From: an uncultured Candidatus Saccharimonadales bacterium
GTDB lineage: Bacteria; Patescibacteriota; Saccharimonadia; UBA4664
Assembly (NCBI GenBank): GCA_964609585.1
Contig: CAZSRA010000004.1
Span: 27,417-91,416, forward strand
DNA length: 64,000 bases
Direction: 5' to 3'
Shown: in pieces, positions 31,221 through 53,484 of the stretch
Numbering within the stretch: position 1 is the stretch's first letter
How the letters are laid out: each line of letters opens with the position of its first letter
Position numbers and translations under genes: made by a program
The notes under the pieces: model-generated
Told to the model about the DNA's origin: nothing
What the model saw: only the letters and a program-made list of their open reading frames with translations
The model's database searches: none

Positions 31221-31736
31221 GTGTATGTGCCACAGGTAGACATAAAAAATAAGCGCTCTAAGAAGCCAATATTCGTGGGAGTGGGAGCTCTCGGCATTGT
31301 TGTGATTATCGTTGGCGGGGTGTTGTGGTATGTGGGCCATCCTGCGGTTACGACTCAGACTGTATTGACACAGGCGGCGGACAAAGAGTTTTCCGGTGAC
31401 GGAAAAGGTGCGATTGCGCAATTGGAGCAACAGTTGAGTCATGCGAAAACCAATGAAGACAAGGTGAATATCTACTTGGCTATTGGAGTCGCCTACGAAA
31501 ATGAGCATGATAGTAAATCGGCGCTGGCGGCATATCAGAAGGCGGGGGCGATTAGCGCAAGCTATGGGACAAACGATTCTATAGCCAGGGCAGCTGCGGA
31601 AACGGGTGATAAGCCAATGGCAATTGATTACTATAAGCGCAATCTTGCCTTGATAAACGAGGGTAAAGCCAAAGAGAGTAGCGGTGATGCTCCGACGATT
31701 GAGCAAGCGATTAAAGACCTGGGGGGTACCCCATGA
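31221..31736 (+). CDS. N-terminally membrane-anchored small protein with TPR-like helical C-terminus (171 aa); partner of secreted protein A
   Basis: N-terminus PQVDIKNKRSKKPIFVGVGALGIVVIIVGGVLW homologous to N-terminus of 33778 ORF; ATGA overlap with next gene. Confidence 0.5.
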   Translation: MYVPQVDIKNKRSKKPIFVGVGALGIVVIIVGGVLWYVGHPAVTTQTVLTQAADKEFSGDGKGAIAQLEQQLSHAKTNEDKVNIYLAIGVAYENEHDSKSALAAYQKAGAISASYGTNDSIARAAAETGDKPMAIDYYKRNLALINEGKAKESSGDAPTIEQAIKDLGGTP

Positions 31737-33667
31737 GGAGTCGTCTTGTAGTCGTAGCTGCGGTGGTGTTGTTTGCTATCGGGGTGGTAATCCCGGCCGG
31801 ATCTGCGGAAGCGGCGCCGTTTGCTCGAGCTGCAAATCACGGCTTTTTTACCAATCGATGTGATAACGGAGGCGGATCGGTCATAACGAGCGGTGTTCAC
31901 CCGACGGCCGCACCGTTGTACAACGGTAAGCCCTTCACTGCTAGCTTTATATCGCAGGTGCTTGGTTATCTGAGTGGTAGTGGTGGGAATAAGACGGGTG
32001 CTGAATTCCTGATTCTAACCATGCTCGGATATCCGGCTGGAACACCCAAGGCGACGGCGACCTTTGGGTTTGTTCAAACGAACTGGGTGAATTTGGTACA
32101 TGGTTATAGCGATAGAGGATGGATTCAGTGGAACGTCGCCTATAGTTTTACGTCTGATACATATTACCAAGGCGTGTATTCGTCGGTGGGTGGAATTTGT
32201 GACGGCATTGCTGGGTTCCCGGATGACGATGCTTGGTATTCACATTCGGCGACGGCTAATCCGGCGATTGTTTTTCACCAACCTGGGACAACTAGCTTCT
32301 ATGCCATACAGGAGTCGTGTGCAAATCCGCTCGGTGACTTTAATTTGCCGCCGTTGCCGATTCCAACGCCTGTTCCAAACTATAATGTGACTTTGTCGGC
32401 GGATACGAATGGTTCACCCTCCACGGTGGTGGCGGGGCAAAGCTATCGTATAGGCGTGGCAGTGAGCAATAGTGGGCCGGCGGCTTCGACCGTGGGCGAC
32501 ATTGAAGTGATGATGCCAGCAGCAGGCGTGGTGCAAGCTTGTGGGCCAACCTGTAATGACCCGGGCCAGAATGTGCTACTTTATGGTCCGACGGGCCCGG
32601 GAGGGCACAGTTACCGGGCGGCATCGACGATCCCGGGGACGGTCGGGCGCAACTGGGATTGGTCGGTGAATCCGCTGGGAGCAGGGGCGGGTGCCGGTAG
32701 TGTATTGAACTGGACGGTGGCACCGGGGACGCCAGTGGGGACGGTAATTACGTTTGATGTGTATTACTATAAGCAGAATTTGGCTGGCGGGGTGCAGCAT
32801 GTGACGGTAAGCTTCCGCGTGGTGTCGCAACGGACTCCGAGTATATCGGCTGCAAATAGCGACGTTCATGCAGGCGGTGGGCTGTGCGGGCAAGCATTGT
32901 CTGGCGGTAACGTGACGACGAGTCCGGGCGGAGCCTCATATGGCCAGTATGTAGTGTCGGCAACGGGCTCGATTAACAGTTTGTTTTCGAATAACGCCAG
33001 CAGTGGGGTCACGGATACGTTGAAGCTAGGCAATTTTGGCAGCTATGCTCAGGTATGTCGAGCGGATTTGTGGACGGCGGCTAAGGCGGGATGGCCGAGT
33101 GGGCCCGGTATTCATACCATTGGCGGATTGGGTGTCGCGTCGTTTGTGCTGGCGGGTAATGAAGGTGGGGTTTATTACTTCAACGGCACACACTTGAACC
33201 TGCACGGGGCGGTGGGTAATCCGATAGCTCCGGGCGTGCCGCCAGCTCCGGTGACGATTGTGACGCTCCAGCCGGGTGCAGTTGTCGAGATTGACGGCAA
33301 TATTACACTCAATAATACGGTGTATCCGCCGCACAGCGCGCCGTCGCTTGGGATTATTTCGGCGGGAGACATTTTGATTGATCCGGCGGTGACGCATGTG
33401 GATGCGTATTTGTTTTCTTCGGCAGGGACGATTGATACTTGTAACCCGATTGGGTCCTGTTCTACGCCCCAGTTGGTCGTGAACGGGTTTTTGATGGCCA
33501 AGAACATTTTGTTTAGTCGGGCGGGGGTCGTGAATACGAACGGCAATGCGGTGTCGGAAGCGATTAATCTGACGCCTCAAATTTACCTCAATCCGCCTAA
33601 ATATTTTGACGCGAGTGTGGATGATGTATTGCTCCAGGGGCAGGGTGAGCGAGCGCCTTTGTTCTGA
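31733..33667 (+). CDS. large secreted protein A (644 aa): signal peptide, variable N-terminal region (DUF11/Ig-like stretch), conserved ~270-aa C-terminal domain shared with 34208 ORF
   Basis: signal peptide MRSRLVVVAAVVLFAIGVVIPAGSAEA; C-terminal identity with paralog. Confidence 0.6.
   Translation: MRSRLVVVAAVVLFAIGVVIPAGSAEAAPFARAANHGFFTNRCDNGGGSVITSGVHPTAAPLYNGKPFTASFISQVLGYLSGSGGNKTGAEFLILTMLGYPAGTPKATATFGFVQTNWVNLVHGYSDRGWIQWNVAYSFTSDTYYQGVYSSVGGICDGIAGFPDDDAWYSHSATANPAIVFHQPGTTSFYAIQESCANPLGDFNLPPLPIPTPVPNYNVTLSADTNGSPSTVVAGQSYRIGVAVSNSGPAASTVGDIEVMMPAAGVVQACGPTCNDPGQNVLLYGPTGPGGHSYRAASTIPGTVGRNWDWSVNPLGAGAGAGSVLNWTVAPGTPVGTVITFDVYYYKQNLAGGVQHVTVSFRVVSQRTPSISAANSDVHAGGGLCGQALSGGNVTTSPGGASYGQYVVSATGSINSLFSNNASSGVTDTLKLGNFGSYAQVCRADLWTAAKAGWPSGPGIHTIGGLGVASFVLAGNEGGVYYFNGTHLNLHGAVGNPIAPGVPPAPVTIVTLQPGAVVEIDGNITLNNTVYPPHSAPSLGIISAGDILIDPAVTHVDAYLFSSAGTIDTCNPIGSCSTPQLVVNGFLMAKNILFSRAGVVNTNGNAVSEAINLTPQIYLNPPKYFDASVDDVLLQGQGERAPLF
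32858..33667 (+). repeat. ~0.8-kb segment duplicated at 35237..36064 (C-terminal domains of the two large secreted paralogs, high nucleotide identity)
   Basis: e.g. agcgacgttcatgcaggcggtgggctgtgcgggcaagcattgtctggcggtaacgtgacgacgagtccg vs agcgacattcatgcaggtggcgggctgtgcgggcaggcattgtctggcggtaatgtgacaacgagtccg. Confidence 0.85.
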
Positions 33668-33777: not shown

Positions 33778-34227
33778 ATGCCCCAAGTTGAAATAGTTCC
33801 TCATGGTTCGAAAAAGCCGGTGGCTACTATTGGAGCTGGTGTAGCTGGCGTGATTTTGGTGGCGATTGTGATAGCGGCAGTGATGTGGCTGAACCGGCCG
33901 AAGCCGAAGTCGACGCTACCGATAACTCGGGTAGTGACACCGAAGAACACCACTTATTACGCCGTAGTGAGTGCCGCAGATGTCGCAAAAGCTCACGAGA
34001 CTCTGGCGGCGGAGGGGACTGTGCAATCATTTGACGGGAAGACGATAGGGTTTTTAGCGAATGGTTCGAAGCAAACTTTGAAGCTTGTGGTCACGCCTTC
34101 TACTCGATACACAAAAGGTGCCAGTTATGCGCCGGCCCAGGCTAGCGGTTTGAAGGGTGGCTCGCGTGCTATTGTGACCTACAATTCGAGAACTAATGAA
34201 GTGATGAGTGTGGCTTATGATCTCTAG
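33778..34227 (+). CDS. N-terminally membrane-anchored small protein (149 aa); partner of secreted protein B
   Basis: PQVEIVPHGSKKPVATIGAGVAGVILVAIVIAAVMW similar to 31221 ORF N-terminus. Confidence 0.5.
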   Translation: MPQVEIVPHGSKKPVATIGAGVAGVILVAIVIAAVMWLNRPKPKSTLPITRVVTPKNTTYYAVVSAADVAKAHETLAAEGTVQSFDGKTIGFLANGSKQTLKLVVTPSTRYTKGASYAPAQASGLKGGSRAIVTYNSRTNEVMSVAYDL

Positions 34228-36064
34228 AAGGAGAACATGGCGACTTCGGCGGCCGATGACGATGGTGGTGGCGATAGCTGAGATCATATGGACGTTGGGA
34301 ATAGTGGTGCCGGCACAACCGGCATTTGCTGCGCAGGTGATTCAGAATTTGGCAACGAGCTCATCGCCTTCATTGCAGACACGATGGTATAGCTTGCGTG
34401 GATACGGCAGTATTCCGAAATGGGAACTGAACTGGCCGCAGCGAAGCGAGAATTGTCCATTTAACGGCAAGACCTATAAGACTTTGCCGTGGCAAGCTTA
34501 TGATCCGTTTAACTTATTTTTTAATGGCAACTACATGGATATCAGCAGTAACTGCGCTGATCGTTATACAGACGCGGGTACAGCGATTGGTGGGGGAGCC
34601 TGGATTTATCCAAGTGCACAAGGGGGCTGGGCAATGCCCGGGGGGCCACAATTTATAAATTGGCAGTCGGGGGCGTTTCCGGCTTTTTCGACGGTAATGA
34701 ATGGGTGTTTCAACGGTTCGCTGCCGGGCGGAAATGCAGCTGCGATTTGGGGAGCGGCTGGTCCTGATACGAGCGACCAGTTTTATGCGAGCGGCCCGAT
34801 TGGCACCATCCCCGGATTTGCTAATGGCTTATATTACGATAACTATCCTGGCGGTATACCTCAGGCTACAAAGCTGTTTTCAAATGGAGTAACGCTCGTA
34901 CGAGATAGCTTCAACTTGAACGCGACGGACATGATAAGGCTCAATCAGGGAAGCACCTCGTTGTTTATGCAAGCCTACGCGGATGACTGGTTGCAGGTTT
35001 ACCTTAACGGAGTTGCTGTGGGTGCATATACGACGACGACGGCGAGTAGAATGTCGCTTGATCTGACTGCGGTGAAGGGTTTGCTGGTGCCCGGGCAGAA
35101 TTGGATTGGGGTAATGGCTGCGGATAAGGCGGTGTTTGATGCGGCGGATCCGGGTGGTCGTGGGGCTGGGGTCTGCTACAACTTGCAGTACAAATACAGC
35201 GATGCCATTAGTAATCCGGGCTTACAGGGACTTAATAGCGACATTCATGCAGGTGGCGGGCTGTGCGGGCAGGCATTGTCTGGCGGTAATGTGACAACGA
35301 GTCCGAACAATCCGCCGAATCCTCCAGTGTCGTATGGGCAATATGTAGTGTCGGCAACGGGTTCGATTAATAATTTATTTTCGAATAATGCAAATAGTGG
35401 GGTGAATGACAAGTTAAAGGCGGGGAGCTCGGGAGGGTATGCGCAGGTGTGCCGAGCGGACTTATTGACGGCTGCTCGGGCAGGATGGCCGAGTGGGCCT
35501 GGGATTCATACCATTGGAGGTCTTGGAGCTGCATCTTTCAATCTGACAGGGACTGAGAGCGGGGTTTATTACTTTAATGGTACGCATTTGAACCTGCACG
35601 GGGCGGTGGGTAATCCGGTGGCTCCGGGTGTGCCGCCGAGCCCGGTGACGATTGTGACCTTGAATCCGGCGGCGGTGGTGGAGATCGATGGCAACATTAC
35701 GCTCAATAATACGGTGTATCCGCCGCATTCGGCGCCGTCGCTGGGGATTATTTCGGCATCGGATATTTTGATTGACCCGGCGGTGACGCATGTGGATGCT
35801 TATTTGTTTTCTTCGGCGGGGACGATTTATACGTGTAATGCAGCGCCGTCGGCTTGCTCGACGCCTTTACTAACGGTAAACGGGTTTTTGATGGCGAAAG
35901 ACCTTTCTTTTGGCCGGGTAGGGCCGTTTAACACTATGGGGTCGCCGATTACTGAGAGTATTGTGATGACGCCTCAAATCTACCTTAATCCGCCGAAGTA
36001 TTTTGATGTGAGTGTGGACGACGCTGTGTTGCAAGGGCAAGGTGAAAAACCCCCGCTATTTTAG
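34208..36064 (+). CDS. large secreted protein B (618 aa): signal peptide, distinct N-terminal region (PA14-like stretch AYADDWLQVYLNGVAVG), conserved C-terminal domain shared with protein A
   Basis: start uncertain (34208/34217/34256); overlaps preceding gene. Confidence 0.6.
   Translation: MWLMISRRRTWRLRRPMTMVVAIAEIIWTLGIVVPAQPAFAAQVIQNLATSSSPSLQTRWYSLRGYGSIPKWELNWPQRSENCPFNGKTYKTLPWQAYDPFNLFFNGNYMDISSNCADRYTDAGTAIGGGAWIYPSAQGGWAMPGGPQFINWQSGAFPAFSTVMNGCFNGSLPGGNAAAIWGAAGPDTSDQFYASGPIGTIPGFANGLYYDNYPGGIPQATKLFSNGVTLVRDSFNLNATDMIRLNQGSTSLFMQAYADDWLQVYLNGVAVGAYTTTTASRMSLDLTAVKGLLVPGQNWIGVMAADKAVFDAADPGGRGAGVCYNLQYKYSDAISNPGLQGLNSDIHAGGGLCGQALSGGNVTTSPNNPPNPPVSYGQYVVSATGSINNLFSNNANSGVNDKLKAGSSGGYAQVCRADLLTAARAGWPSGPGIHTIGGLGAASFNLTGTESGVYYFNGTHLNLHGAVGNPVAPGVPPSPVTIVTLNPAAVVEIDGNITLNNTVYPPHSAPSLGIISASDILIDPAVTHVDAYLFSSAGTIYTCNAAPSACSTPLLTVNGFLMAKDLSFGRVGPFNTMGSPITESIVMTPQIYLNPPKYFDVSVDDAVLQGQGEKPPLF
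35237..36064 (+). repeat. second copy of the ~0.8-kb duplicated C-terminal-domain segment
   Basis: see 32858..33667. Confidence 0.85.
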
Positions 36065-38653: not shown

Positions 38654-40438
38654 TTGCGAGGTCTGATGCTATCGGTTGAGAGCCAGCAGCGGATAGAAGA
38701 ACTTCTACTTGAGGGTAAACTGCTCAAGCCGGAAGATCTTGAGACGGCTAAAGTGGATGCGCTAAAGGCGTCTAAGCCGCTCATTGCCTACATTGCTGAA
38801 AAAAATTTGGTGGGCGAAGAGGATCTGACGCGGATTTCAGCGCAGGCTATGGGGGTGCCTTACGCAAATTTGAACGCGTTAACGGTACCAGATGACATTA
38901 CGAAGTTGCTCGCGAAAGAGACGGCCGAAACGTATCTGGCGGTGCCATTTGGCATGCAGCAGGGACGGTTGGCCGTGGGTATGCTCGACCCGACCAATAT
39001 CCAGGCTGTGGACTTTTTGAGCCGCAAGGTGGGACACAACATTACGGTGTATTTGGCGTCGCGGGGATCGATTGATCATGTGCTGGCGCAGTTCCATAGC
39101 GATGTGGCGGCGGATGTGGCGAGCGCGATGGATGTCGCGAGTGTGGACGATCACCCGAAGGTGGAGGCAAAGAATGCCAAGGGGCTGCAGAATTTGGTGC
39201 AGGATGCGCCGATTACGCGCGCCTTGAACGCGATTTTGGATTATGCGGCGCAGAGCCGGGCGAGTGATATTCACATTGAGCCGCGCGAGCATGAGCTGAA
39301 GATTCGTTACCGGATTGACGGTATTTTGCAGGAGACGATGACGCTACCGAAGAGCATTGAGCCGGCGCTGATTTCGCGCATTAAGATTTTGAGCAATTTG
39401 CGGATTGATGAGCACCGGATTCCGCAGGACGGGCAATTTCAGATTAGCTCGAATGGGCACGAGATTGACCTGCGTATTGCGATTTCGCCAGTGGTGTGGG
39501 GCGAGCAGGTGGTGGTGCGGCTTTTGGACAAGAGCGGGACAGTGCTGACGCTGGAGAGTCTGGGTTTTCGAGGCCGGGCGGCGCGACTGATTGATGAGGG
39601 AATTCATAAGCCGCATGGGATGACGCTTTCGACGGGGCCGACGGGTTCGGGAAAGAGTACGTCGCTGTACGCGATTGTGCAGGAACTCAAGGATGTGTCG
39701 ATCAACATTGTGACGCTGGAAGATCCGGTGGAGTACAAGATGGACGGGATTAATCAGATTCAGGTGAATAATGATGTGGGCCTGACGTTTGCGAGCGGGC
39801 TGCGGAGTATTTTGCGGCAGGATCCGAATGTGGTGCTGGTGGGGGAGATTCGCGATAAAGAGACGGCGGATCTGGCGGTGCAGGCGGCGCTGACGGGACA
39901 CGTGGTGCTTTCGACGATTCACACGAACTCGGCGGCCGGGGTGTTGCCGCGTATGCTCGACATGGGGATCGAGCCGTTTTTGATCGCGAGTACGATTAAT
40001 ACGGTGATTGGGCAGCGGCTGGTGCGAAAATTGTGCGAGAAATGCAAGGAATCATTTGAAACGAACGAGGCGCAGACAAAGTCGATTATGGCGACTTTGG
40101 GCGATGTGCTGCCGAAGACGAAGAGTGAGCTGGAACGGGTAAAGAAGGACGTGGGCTATGAGGTGGTGCCAACGGCCGACCAGAAGACGTTTACGGTGTA
40201 CAAGGCGGTGGGTTGCAAGGAGTGTGTGAAGGGGTACAAGGGGCGGATTGGTATTTATGAGGTGTTTGCCATGACGCCGGCGATGGAGAAATTGCTGCTT
40301 GAGCATTCGACGACGAGCGAGGTGCAGAATCAGGCATCGAAAGATGGCATGCTAACGATGAAGCAGGATGGGTACTTTAAGGCTTTGAATGCGCTGACGA
40401 CTTTGGAAGAGGTAGCGCGGGTGGCGGCGGACTTTTAG
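38654..40438 (+). CDS. pilB: type IV pilus assembly ATPase PilB (GspE family)
   Basis: Walker A GPTGSGKST, GspII_E N-domain, tetracysteine motif. Confidence 0.9.
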   Translation: MRGLMLSVESQQRIEELLLEGKLLKPEDLETAKVDALKASKPLIAYIAEKNLVGEEDLTRISAQAMGVPYANLNALTVPDDITKLLAKETAETYLAVPFGMQQGRLAVGMLDPTNIQAVDFLSRKVGHNITVYLASRGSIDHVLAQFHSDVAADVASAMDVASVDDHPKVEAKNAKGLQNLVQDAPITRALNAILDYAAQSRASDIHIEPREHELKIRYRIDGILQETMTLPKSIEPALISRIKILSNLRIDEHRIPQDGQFQISSNGHEIDLRIAISPVVWGEQVVVRLLDKSGTVLTLESLGFRGRAARLIDEGIHKPHGMTLSTGPTGSGKSTSLYAIVQELKDVSINIVTLEDPVEYKMDGINQIQVNNDVGLTFASGLRSILRQDPNVVLVGEIRDKETADLAVQAALTGHVVLSTIHTNSAAGVLPRMLDMGIEPFLIASTINTVIGQRLVRKLCEKCKESFETNEAQTKSIMATLGDVLPKTKSELERVKKDVGYEVVPTADQKTFTVYKAVGCKECVKGYKGRIGIYEVFAMTPAMEKLLLEHSTTSEVQNQASKDGMLTMKQDGYFKALNALTTLEEVARVAADF

Positions 40439-40461
40439 ATTGGTTTGGTTTTGGGGCTAGG

Positions 40462-40552
40462 CCTAAGGTTTCAAAACGGAGGTTTTTGAGGCTTTGAAAG
40501 CTTAGGTCTGGCCGGTCCCGCAGATGCGGGGCCGGGCGCAGACGAAGGAGGG
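40462..40552 (-). repeat. cassette 3' repeat copy 1 (~95 bp: CCTAAGGTTTCAAAAC...CTTAGG imperfect hairpin + GC hairpin + purine-rich tail abutting stop codon)
   Basis: aligned by eye with copies at 41267 and 42238. Confidence 0.7.
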
Positions 40553-41167
40553 TCAGGCGATGGCGGCGTTCGTGTACTGGCAGAAGGATCTGACGGGTCG
40601 CTGACCGTTGAGCCAGTTGAACGCATCTTGGAGCGCGCCGGGGAGCGTCGTGATGACGAGTGGAGGTACGCCTCCGCTTGCCTGGTGGAAGATCGCTGGT
40701 GTGCACACGAAGCTCGTTTGCGAGGAGTTCGGTGTGACCCCGATCATCACCAGGCCGGGGTAGTCGGGATCGGCGGTGATGACGAGAACGAGGCAGTCAT
40801 TGCGCCAGCGCTCCAGCTTGATGCTGGGACTGGCCTGCGGACTGCTGCTGCCGGGATCCTGGTAATGGAACCCGGCGTTCGATAGTGCTTGCTGGTTGTC
40901 CCAGTTCAGGATCGTGGCGCCGACGACGGCGGGCGAGGTCGATGCGGGCCTGCAGGCGGCTTTGATCTTGATGTCGCTTGCCGAGATGCTCGCGGTCGCA
41001 TCGGTTGATGTGCTTGAGCTGGGCTTGTCGCCTGCGGTGGGCGTGGTCGTAACGACCGAGGTCGAGTGCGCCGGGTGGTTGTGGGCGCTGTAAGCGGCGA
41101 CGCTGGCACCCGTGAGAGCGACAGCTGCGAGGATCACAGCGGCCAGATTGCTACGCCGAGTTCGCAT
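40553..41167 (-). CDS. secreted protein (204 aa; Sec signal, S/T-rich linker, 4-Cys C-terminal domain), paralog of 41371 ORF, ~65% GC
   Basis: ATG at 41165-41167 with SD GAAGG; signal MRTRRSNLAAVILAAVALTGASVAA. Confidence 0.5.
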   Translation of the reverse strand: MRTRRSNLAAVILAAVALTGASVAAYSAHNHPAHSTSVVTTTPTAGDKPSSSTSTDATASISASDIKIKAACRPASTSPAVVGATILNWDNQQALSNAGFHYQDPGSSSPQASPSIKLERWRNDCLVLVITADPDYPGLVMIGVTPNSSQTSFVCTPAIFHQASGGVPPLVITTLPGALQDAFNWLNGQRPVRSFCQYTNAAIA

Positions 41168-41215
41168 ACGCGAGCCTTCTTTCTTCGTCTGGGTTGTCAA
41201 AAATGGACGATTAAT

Positions 41216-41244
41216 ATTTTAGAATAAACCATTTGATTTGTCAA
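41216..41244 (-). promoter_or_regulatory. near-consensus sigma70 promoter TTGACA-N17-TAAAAT (minus strand) for cassette gene a
   Basis: reverse complement of attttagaataaaccatttgatttgtcaa. Confidence 0.55.
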
Positions 41245-41266
41245 TTTTATGATAATTAAAAACAAG

Positions 41267-41370
41267 CCTAAGATTTCAAAAAAGGAGCTTGGGTGCTCTT
41301 GAAGCCTTAGGCTTGCGCCGGTCCCCGCGCGCCGAAGGCGCGGGGACCGGCATGCAAGACGGGAAGGGAA
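41267..41370 (-). repeat. cassette 3' repeat copy 2 with perfect 14-bp GC hairpin (gccggtccccgcgc...gcgcggggaccggc)
   Basis: hairpin and flanking CCTAAG...CTTAGG arms read directly from sequence. Confidence 0.7.
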
Positions 41371-42012
41371 CTAGCTCCTGGTGCAGTCGGACCCGCCGTT
41401 GGCGAGCCAGACGTCCAGCTTGGTGAGCGCGACGTCGACGTTTGCGGCGTCCAGCGGCAGGCTCACGTTGCACATGAACCCCTCCGGCCTCTTGGTGCGC
41501 GTGGAGTCTTCGTACATGCCGATCAGGAGGATCGTCGGGTTCGCGCCGGTGGTGACCAGCATCGAGGTGCAGCCCTGCGTCTCCTTCCAGTCCTCCCAGC
41601 CATCGGTGTCCGAGCTGACGTTGTGGAAGCCGAAGCCGGCGCTCGTGAGCGGCTGAGCGGGGATCTGGCCGAGCTTCGTACCGGAGGGCGGGCTGAACTG
41701 CGTTGCGGTGGGGCAGCCGGTGACCTGGTCGATCGTGGCCTCGAGGCCCTGGGCGGTCGGGTCCAGCGTGATCGCCGACGGCGACGTGGTCGGCACGGCG
41801 GTCGAGTGGGCGGGGGACGGGGAGGCCGCGGCGTTGGCCGACTGGGACGCGGAGGCGTTGGTGGTCGGCGCCGGAGCGACGACGTTCTGGCCGCCAGCGA
41901 AGCGCGGGTTGACGTTGGGCTTCGCGCCCCTGGATCCGCTGCAGGCAGCGGTGCTGAGGGCGGTGGCCAGGAACAGGCCGATGAGGCTGGAGGCGCGCTT
42001 CGAGATTCGCAT
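41371..42012 (-). CDS. putative lipoprotein (213 aa; lipobox-like LSTAAC, S/T/P/A-rich linker, Cys-containing C-terminal domain), paralog of 40553 ORF, ~66% GC
   Basis: shared motifs with paralog (GF.(Y/F)...; LV.T(A/G).P..L(L/V)IG; F(V/M)C; WL(N/A)G); SD GAAGGGAAC. Confidence 0.5.
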   Translation of the reverse strand: MRISKRASSLIGLFLATALSTAACSGSRGAKPNVNPRFAGGQNVVAPAPTTNASASQSANAAASPSPAHSTAVPTTSPSAITLDPTAQGLEATIDQVTGCPTATQFSPPSGTKLGQIPAQPLTSAGFGFHNVSSDTDGWEDWKETQGCTSMLVTTGANPTILLIGMYEDSTRTKRPEGFMCNVSLPLDAANVDVALTKLDVWLANGGSDCTRS

Positions 42013-42104
42013 GGTGTGCGAGTTCCCTTCTTAAAGTGTCTTGCGGGGTCAAGGTAGCGATCGCTCGAGTAAATCTAGGGACTACAATGAGCAGATCGTT
42101 AACT

Positions 42105-42133
42105 ACTTTAGCATAAGTAGTATCATTTGTCAA
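42105..42133 (-). promoter_or_regulatory. near-consensus sigma70 promoter TTGACA-N17-TAAAGT (minus strand) for cassette gene b
   Basis: reverse complement of actttagcataagtagtatcatttgtcaa. Confidence 0.55.
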
Positions 42134-42237
42134 ATTTACGCAAGCTGAGTTTCGAATGGATCGCTTAGTTGAGATTCTGGAAAGGGCTTGGAGAATAATT
42201 GCGAAGTATGTACGTAGCGGACATTTGACAGGGTAGA

Positions 42238-42338
42238 CCTAAGGTTTCAAAACTCTTGGGGTCTTGGTAGGCCGTTTGAAAACTTGGGTCTAGCCGGCCC
42301 CGCATGGTACACGGGGCCGGAGGTCAGATGAAGAAAGA
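42238..42338 (-). repeat. cassette 3' repeat copy 3 (hairpin ccggccccg...cggggccgg)
   Basis: hairpin arms and flanking CCTAAG motif read directly from sequence. Confidence 0.7.
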
Positions 42339-42500
42339 TCACCTGGAGAGGGACGGCCAGTGGCCGGTCCAGAAGGCCACTCCCGCCATCATCGCCAGAA
42401 CAAAGAGCATCCCGGCGGTGAAGAGGAGTTGTGGCTGTTGCGATGCAACGAGGCCGCGCCAGAAACCGCCGATGGCGGCTTTGAGGTTCTTGTTTCGCAT
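42339..42500 (-). CDS. small membrane peptide (53 aa) MRNKNLKAAIGGFWRGLVASQQPQLLFTAGMLFVLAMMAGVAFWTGHWPSLSR
   Basis: short form chosen because consensus promoter lies inside the longer 105-aa ORF. Confidence 0.35.
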   Translation of the reverse strand: MRNKNLKAAIGGFWRGLVASQQPQLLFTAGMLFVLAMMAGVAFWTGHWPSLSR

Positions 42501-42559
42501 TGCGAGACCTTGCTTTCTGGTTTGGGTTTGAAATGCTTGGGATGAGCAGACCGTCATAT

Positions 42560-42587
42560 ACTTTAGCATAAGTAGTTTAAATGTCAA
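42560..42587 (-). promoter_or_regulatory. near-consensus sigma70 promoter TTGACA-N16-TAAAGT (minus strand) for cassette gene c
   Basis: reverse complement of actttagcataagtagtttaaatgtcaa. Confidence 0.5.
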
Positions 42588-42670
42588 GTTTGCGACAATA
42601 CATAACCAGAGAAGGCAGTGTACAACCCCATACTCCTTGTGCTTTAATGGAGTCATCTTAGAGGTGAAAT

Positions 42671-43741
42671 GTGGAGAGAAGTGCCCTCAAAATTGAATTG
42701 ATGCTGGAGCAGGTGATTAAGTTTGATGCGTCGGACTTGCACCTTCAGGTGGGTCTGCCGCCGATGTTACGGGTGGATGGTTCACTCAAGCAGATTGAGG
42801 ACACGCCGGTACTTGAGCCTGCGGACGTAGAAAAGCTGGTATTTTCGATTTTGGACGATGATCAAAAAGAGATTTTGATCAAAGACAAGGAAGTGGATTT
42901 TTCGTTTGCGTTTGGAAACTATGGGCGATTCCGGGTAAATGCGTTTCACGAGCGCGGGAATGTGGCGGCAGCGCTGCGCCTGATTCCGAGCAAGGTGCGG
43001 ACATTAGAAGAACTCCAGATGCCGAAGGTGTTGCAGGACTTTACGAAGTTTCCGCGCGGGTTGGTGCTGGTGACGGGGCCGACGGGCTCGGGTAAATCGA
43101 CGACGCTCGCGGCTATGGTGGACAAGATTAATGCTGAGCAATCGAAGCACATTTTGACGATTGAGGACCCGATTGAGTACGCGCATAGTTCGAAAAAATC
43201 GATCGTGGTGCAGCGGGAAATTCACTACGATACGTACTCGTTTGCGGCAGCTCTACGCTCGAGCTTGCGGCAAGACCCGGATGTGGTGTTGATCGGTGAG
43301 ATGCGCGATCTTGAGACGATTGCGGCGGCAGTGACGATCGCGGAGACGGGGCACTTGGTGCTGGCCACCCTGCACACGAACAGCGCGGCTCAGAGTATTG
43401 ATCGTATGATCGACGTATTTCCGCCTCACCAGCAGCAGCAGATTCGGGTGCAGCTGGCAGGTATGCTTCAGGGGATTTGTTCGCAGCGGTTGGTGCCGGG
43501 GATTGGCGGTGGCCGCGTGATAGCGGCTGAGATTTTGGTGGCGACAGGTGCGGTGCGTAACATTATTCGTGAGGGCAAGACGCATCAGCTGGACGCAGTG
43601 ATTCAGACGGGCGCGGAATACGGCATGCAGAGCATGGACCGGCAGCTGGTGGCGCTCGTGCAAGAGGGCAAGATTACCTATGATGAGGCCAAGAATTTTG
43701 CGATTGATTTGCAAGAGCTCGACCGTTTAATGCGAGGTTAG
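42671..43741 (+). CDS. pilT: twitching motility ATPase PilT
   Basis: Walker A GPTGSGKSTT, 356 aa; alternative start 42701. Confidence 0.9.
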   Translation: MERSALKIELMLEQVIKFDASDLHLQVGLPPMLRVDGSLKQIEDTPVLEPADVEKLVFSILDDDQKEILIKDKEVDFSFAFGNYGRFRVNAFHERGNVAAALRLIPSKVRTLEELQMPKVLQDFTKFPRGLVLVTGPTGSGKSTTLAAMVDKINAEQSKHILTIEDPIEYAHSSKKSIVVQREIHYDTYSFAAALRSSLRQDPDVVLIGEMRDLETIAAAVTIAETGHLVLATLHTNSAAQSIDRMIDVFPPHQQQQIRVQLAGMLQGICSQRLVPGIGGGRVIAAEILVATGAVRNIIREGKTHQLDAVIQTGAEYGMQSMDRQLVALVQEGKITYDEAKNFAIDLQELDRLMRG

Positions 43742-43880: not shown

Positions 43881-45107
43881 ATGATTACGTTTGTTTATAC
43901 GGCGCATAAGACCGAGACGGGCGAGACAGTAAAAGCAGAAGTGCAGGCCGAAAATGAGCGAGCGGCGGCGAAGCTGCTGGTGGCTCAGGGGTTGTTTCCG
44001 ATTTCGATTGATCCGAAGGATGGTGCCGGGTTTTTAGCCAAATCTGGGTTTGGAACTCGGGTGGGCGCCAAGGACCGAGTGATTTTTACGCGGCAGCTGT
44101 CTACGCTGATTAATGCGGGATTGCCGTTGACGCAGTCGCTGCGGACGGTGAGTGAGCAGGTGCAAAATAAAACTTTGCACGATGTATCGGTGGCGGTGGT
44201 ATCGAGCGTGGAATCGGGGACGAGTTTGAGTCAATCGTTTGCTCAATACCCGAAGATTTTTAGTGACATTTATGTGAGCTTGGTGGCGGCGGGGGAGTCG
44301 TCGGGGTCGCTGGATAAATCTTTGGAACGGATCGCAATGCAACAGGAGAAGGATGCGGCGATCGTGGGCAAGATTCGCAGTGCGCTGATTTATCCGATTA
44401 TTGTGCTTTTGGTGATTGCGGCGGTGCTAGTGTTTATGCTTACGACGGTGTTGCCGCAGGTGGGTGGGCTGTACAAGGATTTGCATAAGCCGCTGCCGAC
44501 TTTGACGCAGATTTTGCTTGCGATTTCGAATTTTATTATGCACTTTTGGTTCATTGTGATAATCGGGTTGGTGGCTGGCGGGTTTGCGCTGAAGAATTAT
44601 ATACAAACGGAGCAAGGGCGGGCGGTAGCAGACCGAGTGAAGTTGGATGTGCCGCTATTTGGGAAGATTTATCGCAAGGTCTACATGGCGCGGTTTGCTA
44701 GGACGCTGGGGACGATGCTGCAGAGTGGTATCCCGATGCTGGAGGCGCTGCGGATTGTGAAGAATGCCATTGATAACGTGCATGTGGAAGCGGTGCTAGA
44801 GAAGAGTATGCAAGGGGTGAAGGGCGGCAAGGCGCTGTCGACGACGCTGGAGAATGAAGAAACGTTTATAAAGCTGGTGCCGCAGATGATTAAGATTGGC
44901 GAGCAGTCGGGGGCGATTGATTCTATGCTGGACCGGGTGGCGACGTACTACGAGAATGAGGTGGACGAAGAGGTGAAGAACATTTCGACGACGATTGAGC
45001 CGCTTTTGATGGTGGTGCTGGGTGTGACGGTGGGCGGTGTGATTGCGGCGATTTTGATGCCGGTGTACTCGTTGGTGGGGAACGGGTCGGTGGATAATTT
45101 GAAGTAG
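43881..45107 (+). CDS. pilC: type IV pilus platform protein PilC (GspF family)
   Basis: two T2SSF repeats, 408 aa. Confidence 0.9.
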   Translation: MITFVYTAHKTETGETVKAEVQAENERAAAKLLVAQGLFPISIDPKDGAGFLAKSGFGTRVGAKDRVIFTRQLSTLINAGLPLTQSLRTVSEQVQNKTLHDVSVAVVSSVESGTSLSQSFAQYPKIFSDIYVSLVAAGESSGSLDKSLERIAMQQEKDAAIVGKIRSALIYPIIVLLVIAAVLVFMLTTVLPQVGGLYKDLHKPLPTLTQILLAISNFIMHFWFIVIIGLVAGGFALKNYIQTEQGRAVADRVKLDVPLFGKIYRKVYMARFARTLGTMLQSGIPMLEALRIVKNAIDNVHVEAVLEKSMQGVKGGKALSTTLENEETFIKLVPQMIKIGEQSGAIDSMLDRVATYYENEVDEEVKNISTTIEPLLMVVLGVTVGGVIAAILMPVYSLVGNGSVDNLK

Positions 45108-45137: not shown

Positions 45138-45236
45138 GGGCGGTTCGGGGATTGCTCCCCGAACCGCCCGGTTGGTGTGACTCGGGCCTAGGGTCCGAGT
45201 CACAGGACGGGGGTCCGGCTGAGGGTTACCAGCCGG
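45138..45236. terminator. three consecutive hairpins between convergent pilC and PD40-SGNH gene (14-bp, 9-bp, 7-bp stems)
   Basis: gggcggttcgggga ttgc tccccgaaccgccc; gtgactcgg...ccgagtcac; ccggctg...cagccgg. Confidence 0.55.
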
Positions 45237-47583
45237 TACCGGTGAGGACGGAGATCGCGGTTGCCGCGATCTTGGACTGACCGGTGGTGCTGCCGCTGCC
45301 CGGGGTGGGGTGCGGGTAGCCGTAGATCCGGTTGGTGGAGATGTAGCCACCTGCGACCGGGCTCGTGCCCAGGGCGGAGGTGGCGGTGAGGTCAACGTAC
45401 TTGACGTTGGTTCCGCTCACGTAGGTGTGGTCGCCGTTGAGCTCGACTACCACGCTGTGGATGCCCTTGGTGCTGCCGGAGTCGGCGTAGCAGGAGTTGC
45501 CAGTGCTATCGACGACATTCGGGTAGCCGACGTTCAGAATCCTGACACCCGGCGAGGCAGCGGCTGCCACCGTCTCCATGCCTTGCAGGTTGCTCTGGAT
45601 GAGCCCGGAAACGGTGAAGCCGGTGCCGGGGTCGGGAACCGTGAGGTTGTCGTAGACGGAGTTGGCGTCCGGGCAGTTGGTGATGCCGCTGGTGACGGCC
45701 CAGGGTTTGACGCTGGGCGTGTTCCAGTTCGCGAGGTACCAGTTGGCCAGGACGTCAGTCCAGTTGGTGTCGTCGGCGCCGCCGGTCATGCTGACGACGT
45801 TCCAGGAGTCGTACCGCGTGTATAACGCGAGACTGAGCTTTGCGGATTGGGTGTCTCCGCTGGCCCAGGCTGCGGTTCCCGGGGTCGCCAGGTCGCTGCC
45901 GAAACTACTGGTTGGGGCTCCGCTGCGAGCGATCAGGTAGGCCGGCATCCCATCGGAGCCGGTTGCTCCCATACTGATTTGCCAGACTGAAGGGGCGTGC
46001 GTGGAGCTGTTGTAGCTGGCCACGGCCGTGTTCACCCAGGATGCGGTCGCGTCGTTGGGCGTGGGGTCGTTGCTGGGGAGGTACGAAGCACCATCGGCGC
46101 AACTGATGGTCTTGCCGAGGTACTTCACTGCGGCGTCCGCTTGAGTGGGACACTGTGGCTGATCCGATGCCTCGTGGTGGCCGCTGCTGAACGAGTCGCC
46201 GACGGCAGCCCAGATGGGGGCCTTCGGTGTGTGTACCCTGAGAGGTGTGCTCCAGCTACCGGCGGTTCCGCCGGTGCTCACTGGGCGCACCCACAGGTAC
46301 CAGTCTTGGTCGGGCTGCGTGCCGCCGCCCCAGGTGGTGCCGGTACCCGAGTACTTGCCAAGGAAGCTGATCGGTCCCTTCTTCGTGCTCATGTTGGTGA
46401 TGGTTTGGAGGTAGCTCGTGTTCGGAGCGGTCGTGCTCGACGTCGACCATCCGAGGTCGAACCGCTGGTTGCCGGTGGCCGAGAGACTTACCGTCACCTG
46501 GCGGGTGTACGGTGCGTCGCTGGCCGACGGGGCACTGAACGTCGCGGTGCTATTGGACGGCGGGGCTGGGGGCCAGGCCGCGTTGACGAGGGAGAACCAC
46601 GACTGGACATGGCCGCTGGAGGCGGTCAGGTCGGTGGCAGTGCCACCGCTCGAGCTGATGCTGAACACGTCTTCGGAGCCGCTCGTCGTGTTGTTGCTGG
46701 CGAAATACACCGTGCTGCCGTTGGCCGACACGCGCGGCAGTTCGTCAGTGCGCGAGTAGGACTCCGTCGTCAGGGCGTTGCGGGTCACGGTTGTCGTGCT
46801 GAATCCGTTTGACGAACCAAAGTACGAAAGGCCGCCTCCGTTCTCATCACTGTTGAAGTAGATCCGCGATCCATCCGGCGACCAGGCAGGCTCGACATCG
46901 TTGTATGAGCCAAGCGCCGAAGTGAGGCGATGCTGGTTGGTGCCGTCTGCGTTCATGATCCAGATCTGTGTCTGGTTCGTGCCGCTCGGGTCGACGAGGT
47001 CGTAGGTGAGCTTGGTGCCGTCCGGTGACCACGCGACGTCGAGATCGCTCACGTTGTTGGTCGTGAGCTGAACCACACCGCCGGTGCCGTCCGACCTGAC
47101 CTTGTAGACGTTGGTGTTGATCCCGCCCGGCACGGAGTAGCGCCGGGTGAACGCGATCCAGGAACCGTCCGGCGACCAGTGCGGGTTGTCCTCGGTGAAG
47201 TTGTCCGTCGAACCGGCCTGGGTGAGGGTTGTGATACCCGATCCGTCCGAGTTGGCGAGGTAGATCCCCGAGTAGCTGGTTGGGTAGCCAACGTAGGCGA
47301 CCCGCGACCCGTCTGGGGAGACGTCCGGCTGGCTCGGCGATTGTGTGCTCTCGATGATCGTCGAGACCGTACCGGTGGAGCCATCGCGCTTGGCGATGAT
47401 GCCGTTTCCACCGGAATCCATACCGTCGTACATGATGTCGCCAGCGGCGACATCGGCGTGAGCCATCGGCGCCGTGGCGACGATGTTGAAGACCGGGAGT
47501 CCGATGACGGTTCCGATCGCTAGCGCGAAGGCGAGCAAGATTGCTCGCAGTCCGCTGCTAGGTGGTGTCGGTCGTTGAGACAC
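45226..47583 (-). CDS. secreted PD40 (TolB-like) beta-propeller + SGNH/GDSL hydrolase fusion protein (785 aa), ~65% GC
   Basis: GTG start with SD AAAGGAGT; signal peptide; four SPDGS(R/W/K)(V/I/L)x(Y/F) PD40 repeats; GDSL block IWAAVGDSFSSG. Confidence 0.6.
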   Translation of the reverse strand: MSQRPTPPSSGLRAILLAFALAIGTVIGLPVFNIVATAPMAHADVAAGDIMYDGMDSGGNGIIAKRDGSTGTVSTIIESTQSPSQPDVSPDGSRVAYVGYPTSYSGIYLANSDGSGITTLTQAGSTDNFTEDNPHWSPDGSWIAFTRRYSVPGGINTNVYKVRSDGTGGVVQLTTNNVSDLDVAWSPDGTKLTYDLVDPSGTNQTQIWIMNADGTNQHRLTSALGSYNDVEPAWSPDGSRIYFNSDENGGGLSYFGSSNGFSTTTVTRNALTTESYSRTDELPRVSANGSTVYFASNNTTSGSEDVFSISSSGGTATDLTASSGHVQSWFSLVNAAWPPAPPSNSTATFSAPSASDAPYTRQVTVSLSATGNQRFDLGWSTSSTTAPNTSYLQTITNMSTKKGPISFLGKYSGTGTTWGGGTQPDQDWYLWVRPVSTGGTAGSWSTPLRVHTPKAPIWAAVGDSFSSGHHEASDQPQCPTQADAAVKYLGKTISCADGASYLPSNDPTPNDATASWVNTAVASYNSSTHAPSVWQISMGATGSDGMPAYLIARSGAPTSSFGSDLATPGTAAWASGDTQSAKLSLALYTRYDSWNVVSMTGGADDTNWTDVLANWYLANWNTPSVKPWAVTSGITNCPDANSVYDNLTVPDPGTGFTVSGLIQSNLQGMETVAAAASPGVRILNVGYPNVVDSTGNSCYADSGSTKGIHSVVVELNGDHTYVSGTNVKYVDLTATSALGTSPVAGGYISTNRIYGYPHPTPGSGSTTGQSKIAATAISVLTGTGW

Positions 47584-51876: not shown

Positions 51877-52409
51877 TCATGAAGAAGTTTTTGGCTTCAC
51901 AGAGCGGTGATACGATTATTGAAGTGACGATGGCGCTGGCGATTTTGGCGGTAGTGCTGATGAGTGCGACGCTGGTGACGACGCGAGCTTTTCGGCTTGG
52001 GCAAACGGCGCGAGAGCGGACAACGATGGCGGAGGCAGCGCAGGGGCAGGCGGAAGAACTGCGGAGTTTTCGGGATAATCATACGTGGTCGGAGTTTTTG
52101 TATGGGGGTTCCATTGCGGGGGTGGCCTACAATGGGGTACTGACGATTCCGGGTGGTCCGGGATGTCATGTTTCGACGCCTTGTGCGCATATGTTGTATC
52201 GAACGTTTGCTGCGGGGGCGGTGGAATTTGTGCCTTCAGCCTCGCCGGTGGCGGGTCCGGTGCCTACGTCTTACTTGGAGATTTCGGTAACGCCGTTGAC
52301 GGCTCCACCGGTTACGAGCGTGAGCGTAACGGTGAGCTACGGCTTTACTGAGCTTGGTGGCTCCAATGTGGACGCGGGCCACATAAAGACAACGCTTACT
52401 CAGCTTTAG
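51870..52409 (+). CDS. minor pilin (PilV-like), prepilin motif G|DTIIE
   Basis: QSGDTIIEVTMALAILAVVLM. Confidence 0.5.
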   Translation: MLIMKKFLASQSGDTIIEVTMALAILAVVLMSATLVTTRAFRLGQTARERTTMAEAAQGQAEELRSFRDNHTWSEFLYGGSIAGVAYNGVLTIPGGPGCHVSTPCAHMLYRTFAAGAVEFVPSASPVAGPVPTSYLEISVTPLTAPPVTSVSVTVSYGFTELGGSNVDAGHIKTTLTQL

Positions 52410-53325: not shown

Positions 53326-53484
53326 GGATTTATGGTATCACGTTGTTGCAAGGAGGGCGCGTTGGAGGTCGAAAGGTAGGCTTTGCTCGAGGAAACCGGT
53401 GCGCTGGCCGATTTCGACGGCGTGGTGGGGATATGCCCTTCTTGTGGACGGGTCAATTGGCTGGTCTCCTGGTACAATTGCGGT

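Follow-up and report, generated by a model that had tools for sequence, protein, structure and literature searches.

Introduction

Among the organelles by which Saccharibacteria contact their hosts, type IV pili (T4P) are the best documented (PMC9894109; bioRxiv 10.1101/2024.11.25.624915), and the T4P genes form one operon of conserved synteny (PMC7739484). In Nanosynbacter lyticus TM7x the PilT-containing locus has been described as essential and as the likely driver of twitching motility, and natural competence has been described for several Saccharibacteria (bioRxiv 10.1101/2024.11.25.624915). Cultivated members of the group grow on hosts from the Actinobacteria (Schaalia, Leucobacter). The present work concerns a T4P cluster in a 64-kb window (by which we mean the whole stretch of DNA analysed, 64,000 nucleotides (nt) of contig CAZSRA010000004.1) that is part of a genome of the Saccharimonadia (Saccharibacteria/TM7, Candidate Phyla Radiation or CPR), its source being a metagenome-assembled genome (MAG). 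Between the end of pilB (40438) and the start of pilT (42671), the genes of the two pilus motor ATPases, lie 2.2 kb that hold three units on the minus strand, each made up of a near-consensus sigma-70 promoter, one open reading frame (ORF) of 53, 213 or 204 amino acids (aa), and a 3′ module of about 105 nt with two hairpins. We read these 2.2 kb as the content of a clade-specific accessory-gene slot with orphan exported proteins, and give this reading as a whole a probability of roughly 0.6.

Two systems from other bacteria offer points of comparison. In Pseudomonas aeruginosa, the pilin-accessory region downstream of pilA is a strain-variable hotspot between conserved core genes; the locus described here likewise lies in a T4P cluster and has conserved flanks around unrelated cargo that is atypical in composition and often orphan. 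Unlike that region, the site here splits two motor ATPase genes that are adjacent in nearly all other Saccharibacteria, its cargo lies on the opposite strand with its own strong promoter and putative two-hairpin terminator, the scaffold is reused within one genome, and there is no tRNA gene, integrase or transposase at the border. The vlp, vsa and vsp families of Mycoplasma, in turn, are loci of variable surface lipoproteins in small-genome, surface-attached bacteria, with tandem exported or lipoprotein genes whose 5′ expression region is better conserved than the mature coding part, features shared by the present locus; in addition, an A7/A8 tract in a relative of the window organism (the L162 type, see below) switches a lipoprotein gene between 196 and 108 aa. 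In contrast to the Mycoplasma families, the signal peptides in the window are not conserved between units, long in-frame tandem repeats and homopolymer tracts are absent, and no invertible element or site-specific recombinase is adjacent.

Within the Saccharibacteria, the T4P-1 locus of TM7x has the same gene set and order as the window (pilM-N-O-B-T-C, pilin, pilD, minor pilins), but has been published as one operon of conserved synteny, whereas in the clade of the window that synteny is broken at pilB-pilT and at pilC-pilin. We found no mention of opposite-strand genes between pilB and pilT in the two reports that treat these loci (bioRxiv 10.1101/2024.11.25.624915; PMC7739484). Three things make the hotspot unusual: its position between the motor genes of a CPR epibiont's pilus, its restriction to one clade, and its reuse of a promoter/terminator scaffold around orphan ORFs. 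One environmental clade opened its pilus operon at a fixed point and filled it with strongly promoted genes of fast turnover, many of them for lipoproteins.

The pilB-pilT junction in related genomes

The left flank of the junction is pilB, for the type IV pilus assembly ATPase (38654-40438, plus strand; Pfam T2SSE at 5.9e-128, together with MshEN), and the right flank is pilT, for the retraction ATPase (42671-43741, plus strand; T2SSE at 1.4e-51). Among contigs representing one genome per species in GTDB, the top matches to the PilT of the window, 92% and 90% identical to it, come from Saccharimonadia MAGs; some 35 other Saccharibacteria come next. Altogether 176 loci from other genomes or contigs were compared, designated below by L-numbers. 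In the more distant Saccharibacteria, 31 of the 34 loci having both genes show a pilB-pilT gap of 7-151 nt, and the three larger gaps (245-479 nt) contain plus-strand ORFs and no opposite-strand cargo; in L083, with a PilT 79% identical to that of the window, the gap is 14 nt. Among lineages with a PilT at least 90% identical, on the other hand, the junction is enlarged in every one examined, each with different content.

In L082 (PilT 95% and PilB 92% identical to those of the window at the aa level) the gap measures 1364 nt and carries a vapBC-like pair directly after pilB (4701-5356 of that locus, plus strand), consisting of a MazE-type antitoxin (MazE_antitoxin, 6e-09) and a PIN toxin (PIN, 1.9e-19), and then a minus-strand 128-aa ORF rich in guanine plus cytosine (GC), with its own TTGACA promoter and a GC hairpin. 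The gap of L002 (PilT 92%, PilB 83%) is 371 nt long, has 60% GC and one hairpin, and contains no convincing ORF, while L003 (PilT 90%) has an insert of at least 1.5 kb with a minus-strand ORF for a 186-aa membrane protein. The group L162-L174, represented by 21 contigs from many samples, has an insert of 3 kb in which five genes of 108-148 aa lie on the minus strand, each starting with a lipoprotein signal and a lipobox (LAAC, LTAC, LAGC, LAGC and AAGC); paralogy can be detected among three of the five (23-30% identity), and the spaces between the genes contain repeated -10 modules and hairpins. These five lipobox-bearing genes suggest that the clade makes lipoproteins. Further opposite-strand content comprises an ORF of 135 aa with a GC fraction at third codon positions (GC3) of 0.94 in L172, and one of 324 aa with a GC3 of 0.88, itself an orphan, in L175 and L176.

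The cargo of the relatives is unrelated to the genes of the window (the 128-aa ORF of L082 matches orf213, the 213-aa ORF, at an E value of 4.2), and a superfamily common to the cargo across genomes was rejected, since hhalign of the L162 family against the window family aligns signal peptides only, with a probability of 4%. A blastx comparison of the L002, L025, L026 and L035 gaps with all cargo proteins, as a search for decayed cargo, gave chance matches only. With PilB and PilT 83-95% identical in relatives and the inserts between them unrelated, the view of the junction as a clade-specific accessory-gene hotspot is strongly supported by this comparison. A hotspot inside the pilus locus had already been proposed in a sequence-only reading of the window, and the synteny bears it out, short gaps in distant loci contrasting with different inserts in close relatives; the circumstance named there as speaking against it, the same genes always present at the junction with no contrast in composition, is not what is seen, for the contents differ between relatives and the contrast is confirmed.

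Within the L162 type, ten contigs of one near-clonal population (L162, L163-L166, L171, L173) show 0-2 substitutions each over some 8 kb, and yet two 1-nt indels recur among them (L162 positions 2358 and 3420), both located among the lipoprotein genes. One of the two, in an A8/A7 tract, shifts a lipoprotein gene between 108 and 196 aa; the other, of a single T, shifts another gene between 148 and 141 aa. These indels reflect either phase variation or homopolymer sequencing error.

On its right side the slot is bordered by a block with the promoter and leader of pilT (42617-42670, plus strand; reverse complement ...TTGTACAC...ATACCCCTTGTGCTTTAAT...GAGGTG), in which lie the Shine-Dalgarno sequence of pilT and a promoter-like TGn-TTTAAT with TGTACA; much of this block is the same across all 7 lineages of the clade. 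By blastn, homology to L082, L002 and L003 starts at 42617-42629, and the sequences diverge immediately beyond. Because this conserved promoter block bounds the slot, pilT appears to be transcribed on its own. At the left side, where the slot meets the stop codon of pilB, the 3′-terminal part of the L175 insert has the layout and much of the sequence of the window modules, as noted by eye and then by alignment: a stop codon, CTG, a CCGGC.CCGCATC..GCGGG hairpin, and then GACCT(A/T)AG...TTTCAAA...CT.AGG, with two hairpins folding at a z score of -5.4. This counterpart next to pilB implies that the type of 3′ module is older than the cargo of the window, and the module probably began as a convergent terminator common to pilB and whatever gene occupied the slot. 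The slot has neither an integrase or transposase gene nor a tRNA gene or direct repeat at its borders, and the only tyrosine recombinase of the window is XerC/D-like and lies 10 kb off.

Organization of the three units

Unit 3, with the 53-aa ORF (orf53), adjoins pilT; unit 2, with orf213, lies in the middle; and unit 1, with the 204-aa ORF (orf204), adjoins pilB. All are on the minus strand. The promoter of unit 1, P1 (41216-41244), reads TTGACA-N17-TAAAAT, matches the consensus at 11 of 12 positions and is the best sigma-70 match in the window; P2 (42105-42133) is TTGACA-N17-TAAAGT with a TG-extended -10 element, and P3 (42560-42587) is TTGACA-N16-TAAAGT and divergent from the pilT promoter. 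Promoter-like sites between pilB and pilT number 6 where 1.1 would be expected. The whole 64 kb contains 10 sites with at least 10 of 12 matches to the sigma-70 consensus; three are P1-P3 and one is the major pilin promoter. The Shine-Dalgarno matches of the three ORFs are only partial (AAGG or GAAGG).

The 3′ modules, T1 (40448-40552), T2 (41258-41370) and T3 (42228-42338), all on the minus strand, each begin at the stop codon with a GC-rich hairpin, followed by the palindrome CCTAAG.TTTCAAA-loop-TTTGAAA.CTTAGG. T1, two tandem hairpins ending 10 nt from the pilB stop codon, folds as RNA at -38 kcal/mol, with z scores of -5.4 (minus strand) and -5.8 (plus strand), and is a candidate bidirectional terminator. 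T2 has a 14-bp GC hairpin and a second palindrome with 17-nt arms, followed by a T-run (-61.7 kcal/mol, z -8.0), and T3 again has two tandem hairpins (-37.2 kcal/mol, z -3.4). A downstream T-run is present for T2 only, and a scan for consensus terminators called none on the minus strand. The palindrome motif is confined to these three places in the window, with 7 matches against 1.35 expected, and searches elsewhere were negative: the pattern CCTAAGRTTTCAAA-N10-30-YTTGAARNCTTRGG had no match in collections of metagenome and viral contigs, single-arm and promoter patterns had none in 81 loci except an identical contig from the Logan collection, and blastn-short of the modules against all 176 loci gave chance 15-mers only.

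On these points the sequence-only reading holds up well. The three opposite-strand units between pilB and pilT that it had described are confirmed by the ORFs, promoters and 3′ modules, and the promoters (TTGACA-N16/17-TAAAGT or TAAAAT) lie at the positions where it had placed them. Its assignment of a Shine-Dalgarno sequence to each ORF is borne out in so far as one is present, if with partial matches, and the conserved 3′ module of about 100 bp that it had described with a GC-rich hairpin exists, at 77-79% identity, but has two hairpins rather than one.

All three ORFs open with ATG-CGA-A, the start codon lying in or beside a small CTCGC...GCGA(G/A) hairpin (41160-41175, 42000-42020 and 42492-42508). 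As RNA elements, this start-codon hairpin (CTCGC..ATGCGA) and the 5′ leaders fold no better than shuffled sequences (z +1.0, -0.7 and +0.5), and the hairpin may be only inherited sequence. A known RNA element was rejected as an identity for the conserved parts, with none in Rfam and unstructured 5′ leaders: at gathering score Rfam matches nothing in the window except two tRNAs elsewhere, and at E values up to 1 the island has one chance-level match. In P2 and P3 an inverted repeat, ACTACTT-ATGCTA-AAGTAGT (42104-42125 and 42559-42580, minus strand), overlaps the -10 hexamer, with 7+7 perfect pairing in P2 and 5 of 7 in P3; P1 is without it. The repeat could be an operator for a repressor.

Shared scaffold, divergent coding parts

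Between units, similarity runs from upstream of the -35 element through ATG-CGA-A and resumes at the stop codon. The 3′ modules are pairwise 77-79% identical (z 6.6-14.4 against shuffles), T1 and T3 at 79% (z 14.4) and T2 at 77% to each of them; the promoter modules are pairwise 64-83% identical (z 4.1-12.9), the upper value being that of P2 and P3 over 53 nt (z 12.9). The similarity is thus a mosaic, the closest promoters being those of units 2 and 3 and the closest terminators those of units 1 and 3. The coding parts are less alike than these flanks: orf213 and orf204 are 49% identical in codon-aligned nucleotides, against 64-83% for the flanks, and 27-31% identical in aa (BLASTP, 27% over 128 aa, E 2e-5). 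The domains by themselves give a local score with a z of 6.0, which none of 2000 shuffles reaches, and three cysteines align (100/72, 148/125 and 181/155), with a fourth near each C-terminus. Judged from these alignments the paralogy of the two larger ORFs, which had been claimed earlier, is real but distant. With orf53 neither paralog has similarity in any frame, and the idea that orf53 is a frameshifted remnant of the paralog family was rejected on that ground.

The coding parts of the island are compositionally foreign. Their GC content is 62-70%, against a mean of about 54% for the window, and GC3 is 0.95 in orf213, 0.79 in orf204 and 0.78 in orf53, compared with 0.55-0.71 in native genes. 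The third positions of orf213 are 60% C and 35% G; third-position G makes up 0.25-0.35 in the cargo versus 0.10-0.11 in native minus-strand genes. GC skew is positive throughout all 64 kb, and native genes have a plus-strand GC3 skew of about +0.6 whichever strand they are on, whereas that of the cargo is only +0.19 to +0.38. In the cargo ORFs the periodicity by which GC3 exceeds the values at first and second positions (GC1, GC2) is strong and therefore supports the called frames.

A comparable gene occurs at a second break in the operon. orf785 (45226-47583, minus strand; 785 aa), between pilC and the pilin gene, encodes an exported PD40 beta-propeller protein and has a double-hairpin 3′ end. 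With 64% GC and a GC3 of 0.83, it corrects the earlier statement that the two larger island ORFs are the highest-GC genes of the window: the contrast is real, but they are not alone in it. Its homologue at the same site in L082 (8867-11200) is 45% identical, against 95% for PilT and 85% for PilC, and this copy is one of about 25 full-length homologues among metagenome proteins, at 33-66% identity. By these comparisons orf785 looks like a very fast-evolving surface protein. The full-length homologues include no actinobacterial donor. Because a gene of similar composition thus has a same-site homologue in L082, high GC3 alone is no proof of host origin here.

The sequence-only reading had inferred iterative acquisition, and the evidence divides on it. 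A promoter/terminator scaffold shared around paralogous ORFs points to copying of a unit in place. The GC3 of the globular domains, 0.95 ± 0.02 in orf213 and 0.81 ± 0.03 in orf204 and hence about 4 standard errors apart, points to different arrival times. Taken together, the composition suggests that the coding parts arrived or were replaced at different times, their source probably being an unsampled high-GC donor.

Predicted products

orf213 (41371-42012, minus strand) is a predicted lipoprotein, with an A/S/T/P-rich linker of about 70 aa and a domain of about 120 aa with cysteines at 100, 148, 181 and 210. Its N-terminus, MRISKR..LIGLFLATALSTAA-C24, has a charged n-region, a hydrophobic h-region and the lipobox S-T-A-A-C24 (a match to the TAAC pattern) and fits a lipoprotein, a call made by pattern and inspection. 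orf204 (40553-41167, minus strand) is an exported-type orphan with the hydrophobic N-terminus MRTRRSNLAAVILAAVALTGASVAA, an S/T-rich linker of about 35 aa that opens with PAHST.V.TT.P.A, a motif common to both paralogs, and a domain of about 140 aa with cysteines at 72, 125, 155 and 196. Its hydrophobic stretch contains no Cys and thus no lipobox, and the protein is predicted to be either a signal peptidase I substrate or anchored. orf53 (42339-42500, minus strand), likewise without Cys or lipobox, encodes a 53-aa peptide with one hydrophobic segment (about residues 25-45); gene calling on the Logan contig reports it. The exported or lipoprotein character ascribed earlier to the two larger products is sustained by the lipobox of orf213, the hydrophobic N-terminus of orf204 and the four cysteines that each has at matching positions; their linkers, which had been put at about 100 aa, are shorter. 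An imperfect 24-nt repeat (41816-41861; 1.9 copies, 81% match) lies within the A/S/P-rich linker of orf213.

The products are orphans in every collection searched. In the protein collection orf204 and orf53 are singleton clusters, a word-indexed search of 5.8 billion clusters with orf213 returned only itself, and an exhaustive HMMER profile search of 1.84 billion representatives found only orf213 and orf204, besides three repeat proteins that matched through short stretches and were judged spurious. Searches against Pfam, NCBIfam, PHROGs and PADLOC gave no credible family match and PDB sequences none, and tblastn against 72,556 plasmids and 50,697 phage records found no homologue of the two paralogs. 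Pfam at E values up to 1 has nothing for orf204 and for orf213 only YkuD at 0.13; NCBIfam has only LpqS (E 0.029, 14.7 bits against a cut-off of 35); and PADLOC has none for orf53, orf204 or the cargo of any relative, and for orf213 only a non-credible ZorF (E 0.0058, 14.6 bits). The membership in DUF3558 or another actinobacterial lipoprotein family that had been envisaged is therefore not supported by Pfam or NCBIfam, nor is the toxin/immunity-like role by anything credible in PADLOC or Pfam, tools that leave room for a type I toxin with antisense RNA. Models from AlphaFold2 were unusable, with a predicted local distance difference test (pLDDT) score of 45.7 for a two-sequence alignment including the linker and of 36.4 for the domain only with orf204 first.

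For the 213-aa and 53-aa products, exact entries in the protein collection come from Logan alone, while orf204, PilT and PilC are listed from NCBI; the annotation deposited with the MAG may lack the orf213 and orf53 genes or call them differently.

A proposed model and its alternatives

In the account that we favour, one Saccharimonadia lineage would have gained, at the pilB-pilT junction of its PilT-containing pilus operon, a slot bordered by the pilB stop codon on the left and by the conserved pilT promoter block on the right. Its three self-contained units, in which a strong promoter and a short leader that closes with ATG-CGA-A precede a single ORF and its two-hairpin 3′ module, would each be transcribed on its own and at a high level, away from pilT and towards pilB, and the double hairpins would probably stop transcription both ways and so shield pilB from antisense read-through. 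The promoter/terminator scaffold would have been copied from unit to unit, around contents that differ from start to stop codon. The products would be exported, orf213 as a lipoprotein, orf204 by a signal peptide or anchor and orf53 as a single-span membrane peptide, and the two paralogs would present small disulfide-stabilised domains on long flexible linkers at the cell surface. Homologous recombination in the conserved pilB and pilT flanks after natural transformation is a plausible means of exchanging the contents of the slot, given the competence reported for Saccharibacteria.

Several observations weigh against this account. T1 and T3 are without a U-tract, the role of terminator being assigned to them from structure. 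The cargo of three relatives, the 128-aa ORF of L082, the 135-aa ORF of L172 and the 324-aa ORF of L175, has no signal peptide, and L082 adds a toxin-antitoxin pair, which argues that the slot is not dedicated to surface proteins. The gap in GC3 between the paralogs (0.95 vs 0.81) is unexplained by simple duplication in place, and with models at a pLDDT of 45.7 and 36.4 no fold backs a surface role. Because of the export signals, the turnover between relatives and the location, we nevertheless propose, tentatively and at clearly less than even odds, that the products are strain-specific surface proteins of an obligate epibiont, highly expressed beside the machinery for host attachment and not part of the pilus.

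A chimeric assembly, in which high-GC contaminant DNA had been joined to a Saccharimonadia contig, would produce sharp GC steps at the ORF borders, as are seen here, and the source is a MAG; we nonetheless consider it highly improbable. A check for chimerism had been proposed along with the earlier reading, and the outcome argues for an intact junction on the pilT side: the Logan contig SRR9179560_920109, from a separate assembly whose run may or may not be the source of the MAG, matches window positions 41358-42700 without a difference (1343 nt, 100% identity), covering unit 2, unit 3 and the first 30 nt of pilT. Moreover, three times over, a high-GC ORF is followed by a low-GC module homologous to the others, T1 beside pilB has its same-place counterpart in L175, and inserts occupy the same junction in six related lineages. 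Alternatively, the ORFs might have been captured recently from an actinobacterial host, or from its phage or plasmid, and placed under native promoters to act on the host surface. The GC3 of orf213, with third-position G at three times the native level, its A/S/T/P-rich linker and lipobox, the Actinobacteria hosts (Schaalia, Leucobacter) of cultivated Saccharibacteria and the natural competence described for several of them would suit such a capture, which we regard as doubtful all the same: a closer homologue in Actinobacteria did not emerge, there being no homologue at all in the 5.8 billion clusters (word-indexed) or 1.84 billion representatives (HMMER), none among the plasmids and phage records, and no match to DUF3558 or another lipoprotein family. 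The 324-aa cargo of L175 is an orphan too, and orf785, of similar composition, has a family that includes the same-site copy of L082. The Actinobacteria-like origin suggested by the sequence-only reading hence remains a resemblance. Somewhat less doubtful, if still unlikely in our view, is that one ancestral unit was duplicated twice in place, followed by fast diversifying divergence and by loss or replacement of the ORF in unit 3, with no repeated acquisition. The scaffold common from promoter to ATG-CGA-A and from the stop codon on, the true paralogy with four cysteines at matching positions, and the L162 array, which likewise combines repeated -10 modules with paralogous lipoproteins at 23-30% identity, all agree with it; on the other hand, copies of equal age under one mutation regime should differ less than by a domain GC3 gap of about 4 standard errors, orf53 is unrelated in all frames, and the mosaic similarity of promoters and terminators also needs recombination.

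Two functional alternatives place the genes elsewhere than in surface variation. As a small defence or addiction islet, the slot would hold in orf53 a membrane toxin and in the exported proteins immunity or exclusion factors. The VapB/VapC-type pair in the L082 junction recalls such islets, and orf53 is short, hydrophobic and strongly promoted, but PADLOC provides no credible match (the ZorF match of orf213 being marginal), Rfam no antisense RNA, the 5′ leaders have no significant structure, and three separate transcription units are not a toxin-antitoxin operon; we judge this very unlikely. Lineage-specific accessory parts of the pilus, for instance lipoproteins that anchor or regulate it and are coupled to pilB and pilT, are a slightly better prospect, and an unlikely one nonetheless. 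The location inside the pilus operon, promoters as near to consensus as that of the major pilin, and the arrays of small lipoproteins at the same place in relatives favour such parts, but the cargo is not conserved even at 90-95% PilT identity, most Saccharibacteria have no gene there, and no N-terminal methylation motif of the pilin type was found in the cargo.

Known cassette and variation systems were rejected as descriptions of the locus. An integron array shares with it the serial arrangement of co-oriented units that carry one ORF apiece and close with an imperfect palindrome of some 60 nt, and a tyrosine recombinase gene is present in the same 64 kb (52396-53325), but there are zero RYYYAAC/GTTRRRY attC core pairs on either strand in 40400-42700, every unit has its own promoter, intI is not adjacent, and the sole tyrosine recombinase lies 10 kb away beyond the pilus genes. 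A target of a diversity-generating retroelement was dismissed because no pair of template and variable repeats is present, the promoter and terminator modules being all that blastn of both islands recovers in the window, no systematic search for a reverse transcriptase having been made. Vlp-type phase variation was likewise dismissed for the window, where the longest homopolymer is 6 nt and there is one weak repeat (24 nt x 1.9).

The accessory slot with orphan exported proteins could be extended into a joint reading, which we consider improbable, as a site devoted to expressing strain-specific surface proteins that determine host range or recognition, with a reusable scaffold; in the same improbable extension, contents would be exchanged through pilus-dependent transformation, with pilB and pilT as homology arms, and switched through homopolymer slippage in some lineages. 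If true, it would make the slot a contingency locus physically tied to the host-contact organelle. More immediately, the slot yields a short, concrete list of candidate strain-specific surface factors in organisms for which hardly any determinants of host specificity are known, and its natural promoter/terminator scaffold could serve as an expression site in CPR genetics. Should the cargo have no surface role, the finding would be an ordinary accessory-gene hotspot with orphan genes.

The surrounding pilus cluster

The T4P cluster extends from 36122 to about 52400 and comprises pilM, pilN/O-like genes, pilB, pilT, pilC (43881-45107), the pilin gene (47791), pilD (48764) and then the minor pilin genes. 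Most genes of the window share one orientation. Opposite-strand ORFs occur at further points of the cluster in two relatives, namely a 264-aa ORF between pilT and pilC in L003 (2700-3494, minus strand) and a 239-aa ORF between pilC and the pilin gene in L172 (3380-4099, minus strand), both with no Pfam match. Two large plus-strand ORFs directly upstream of pilM in the window (31733-33667, 644 aa, and 34208-36064, 618 aa) have native composition, with GC2 about 0.51, and no Pfam match, and may encode uncharacterised pilus-associated proteins. The XerC/D-like tyrosine recombinase gene mentioned above (52396-53325, minus strand) stands at the end of the pilus cluster and matches Phage_integrase at 7.5e-46 together with a SAM-like N-terminal domain; it is followed by a gene for an O-antigen-ligase/TPR protein (53383-55374).

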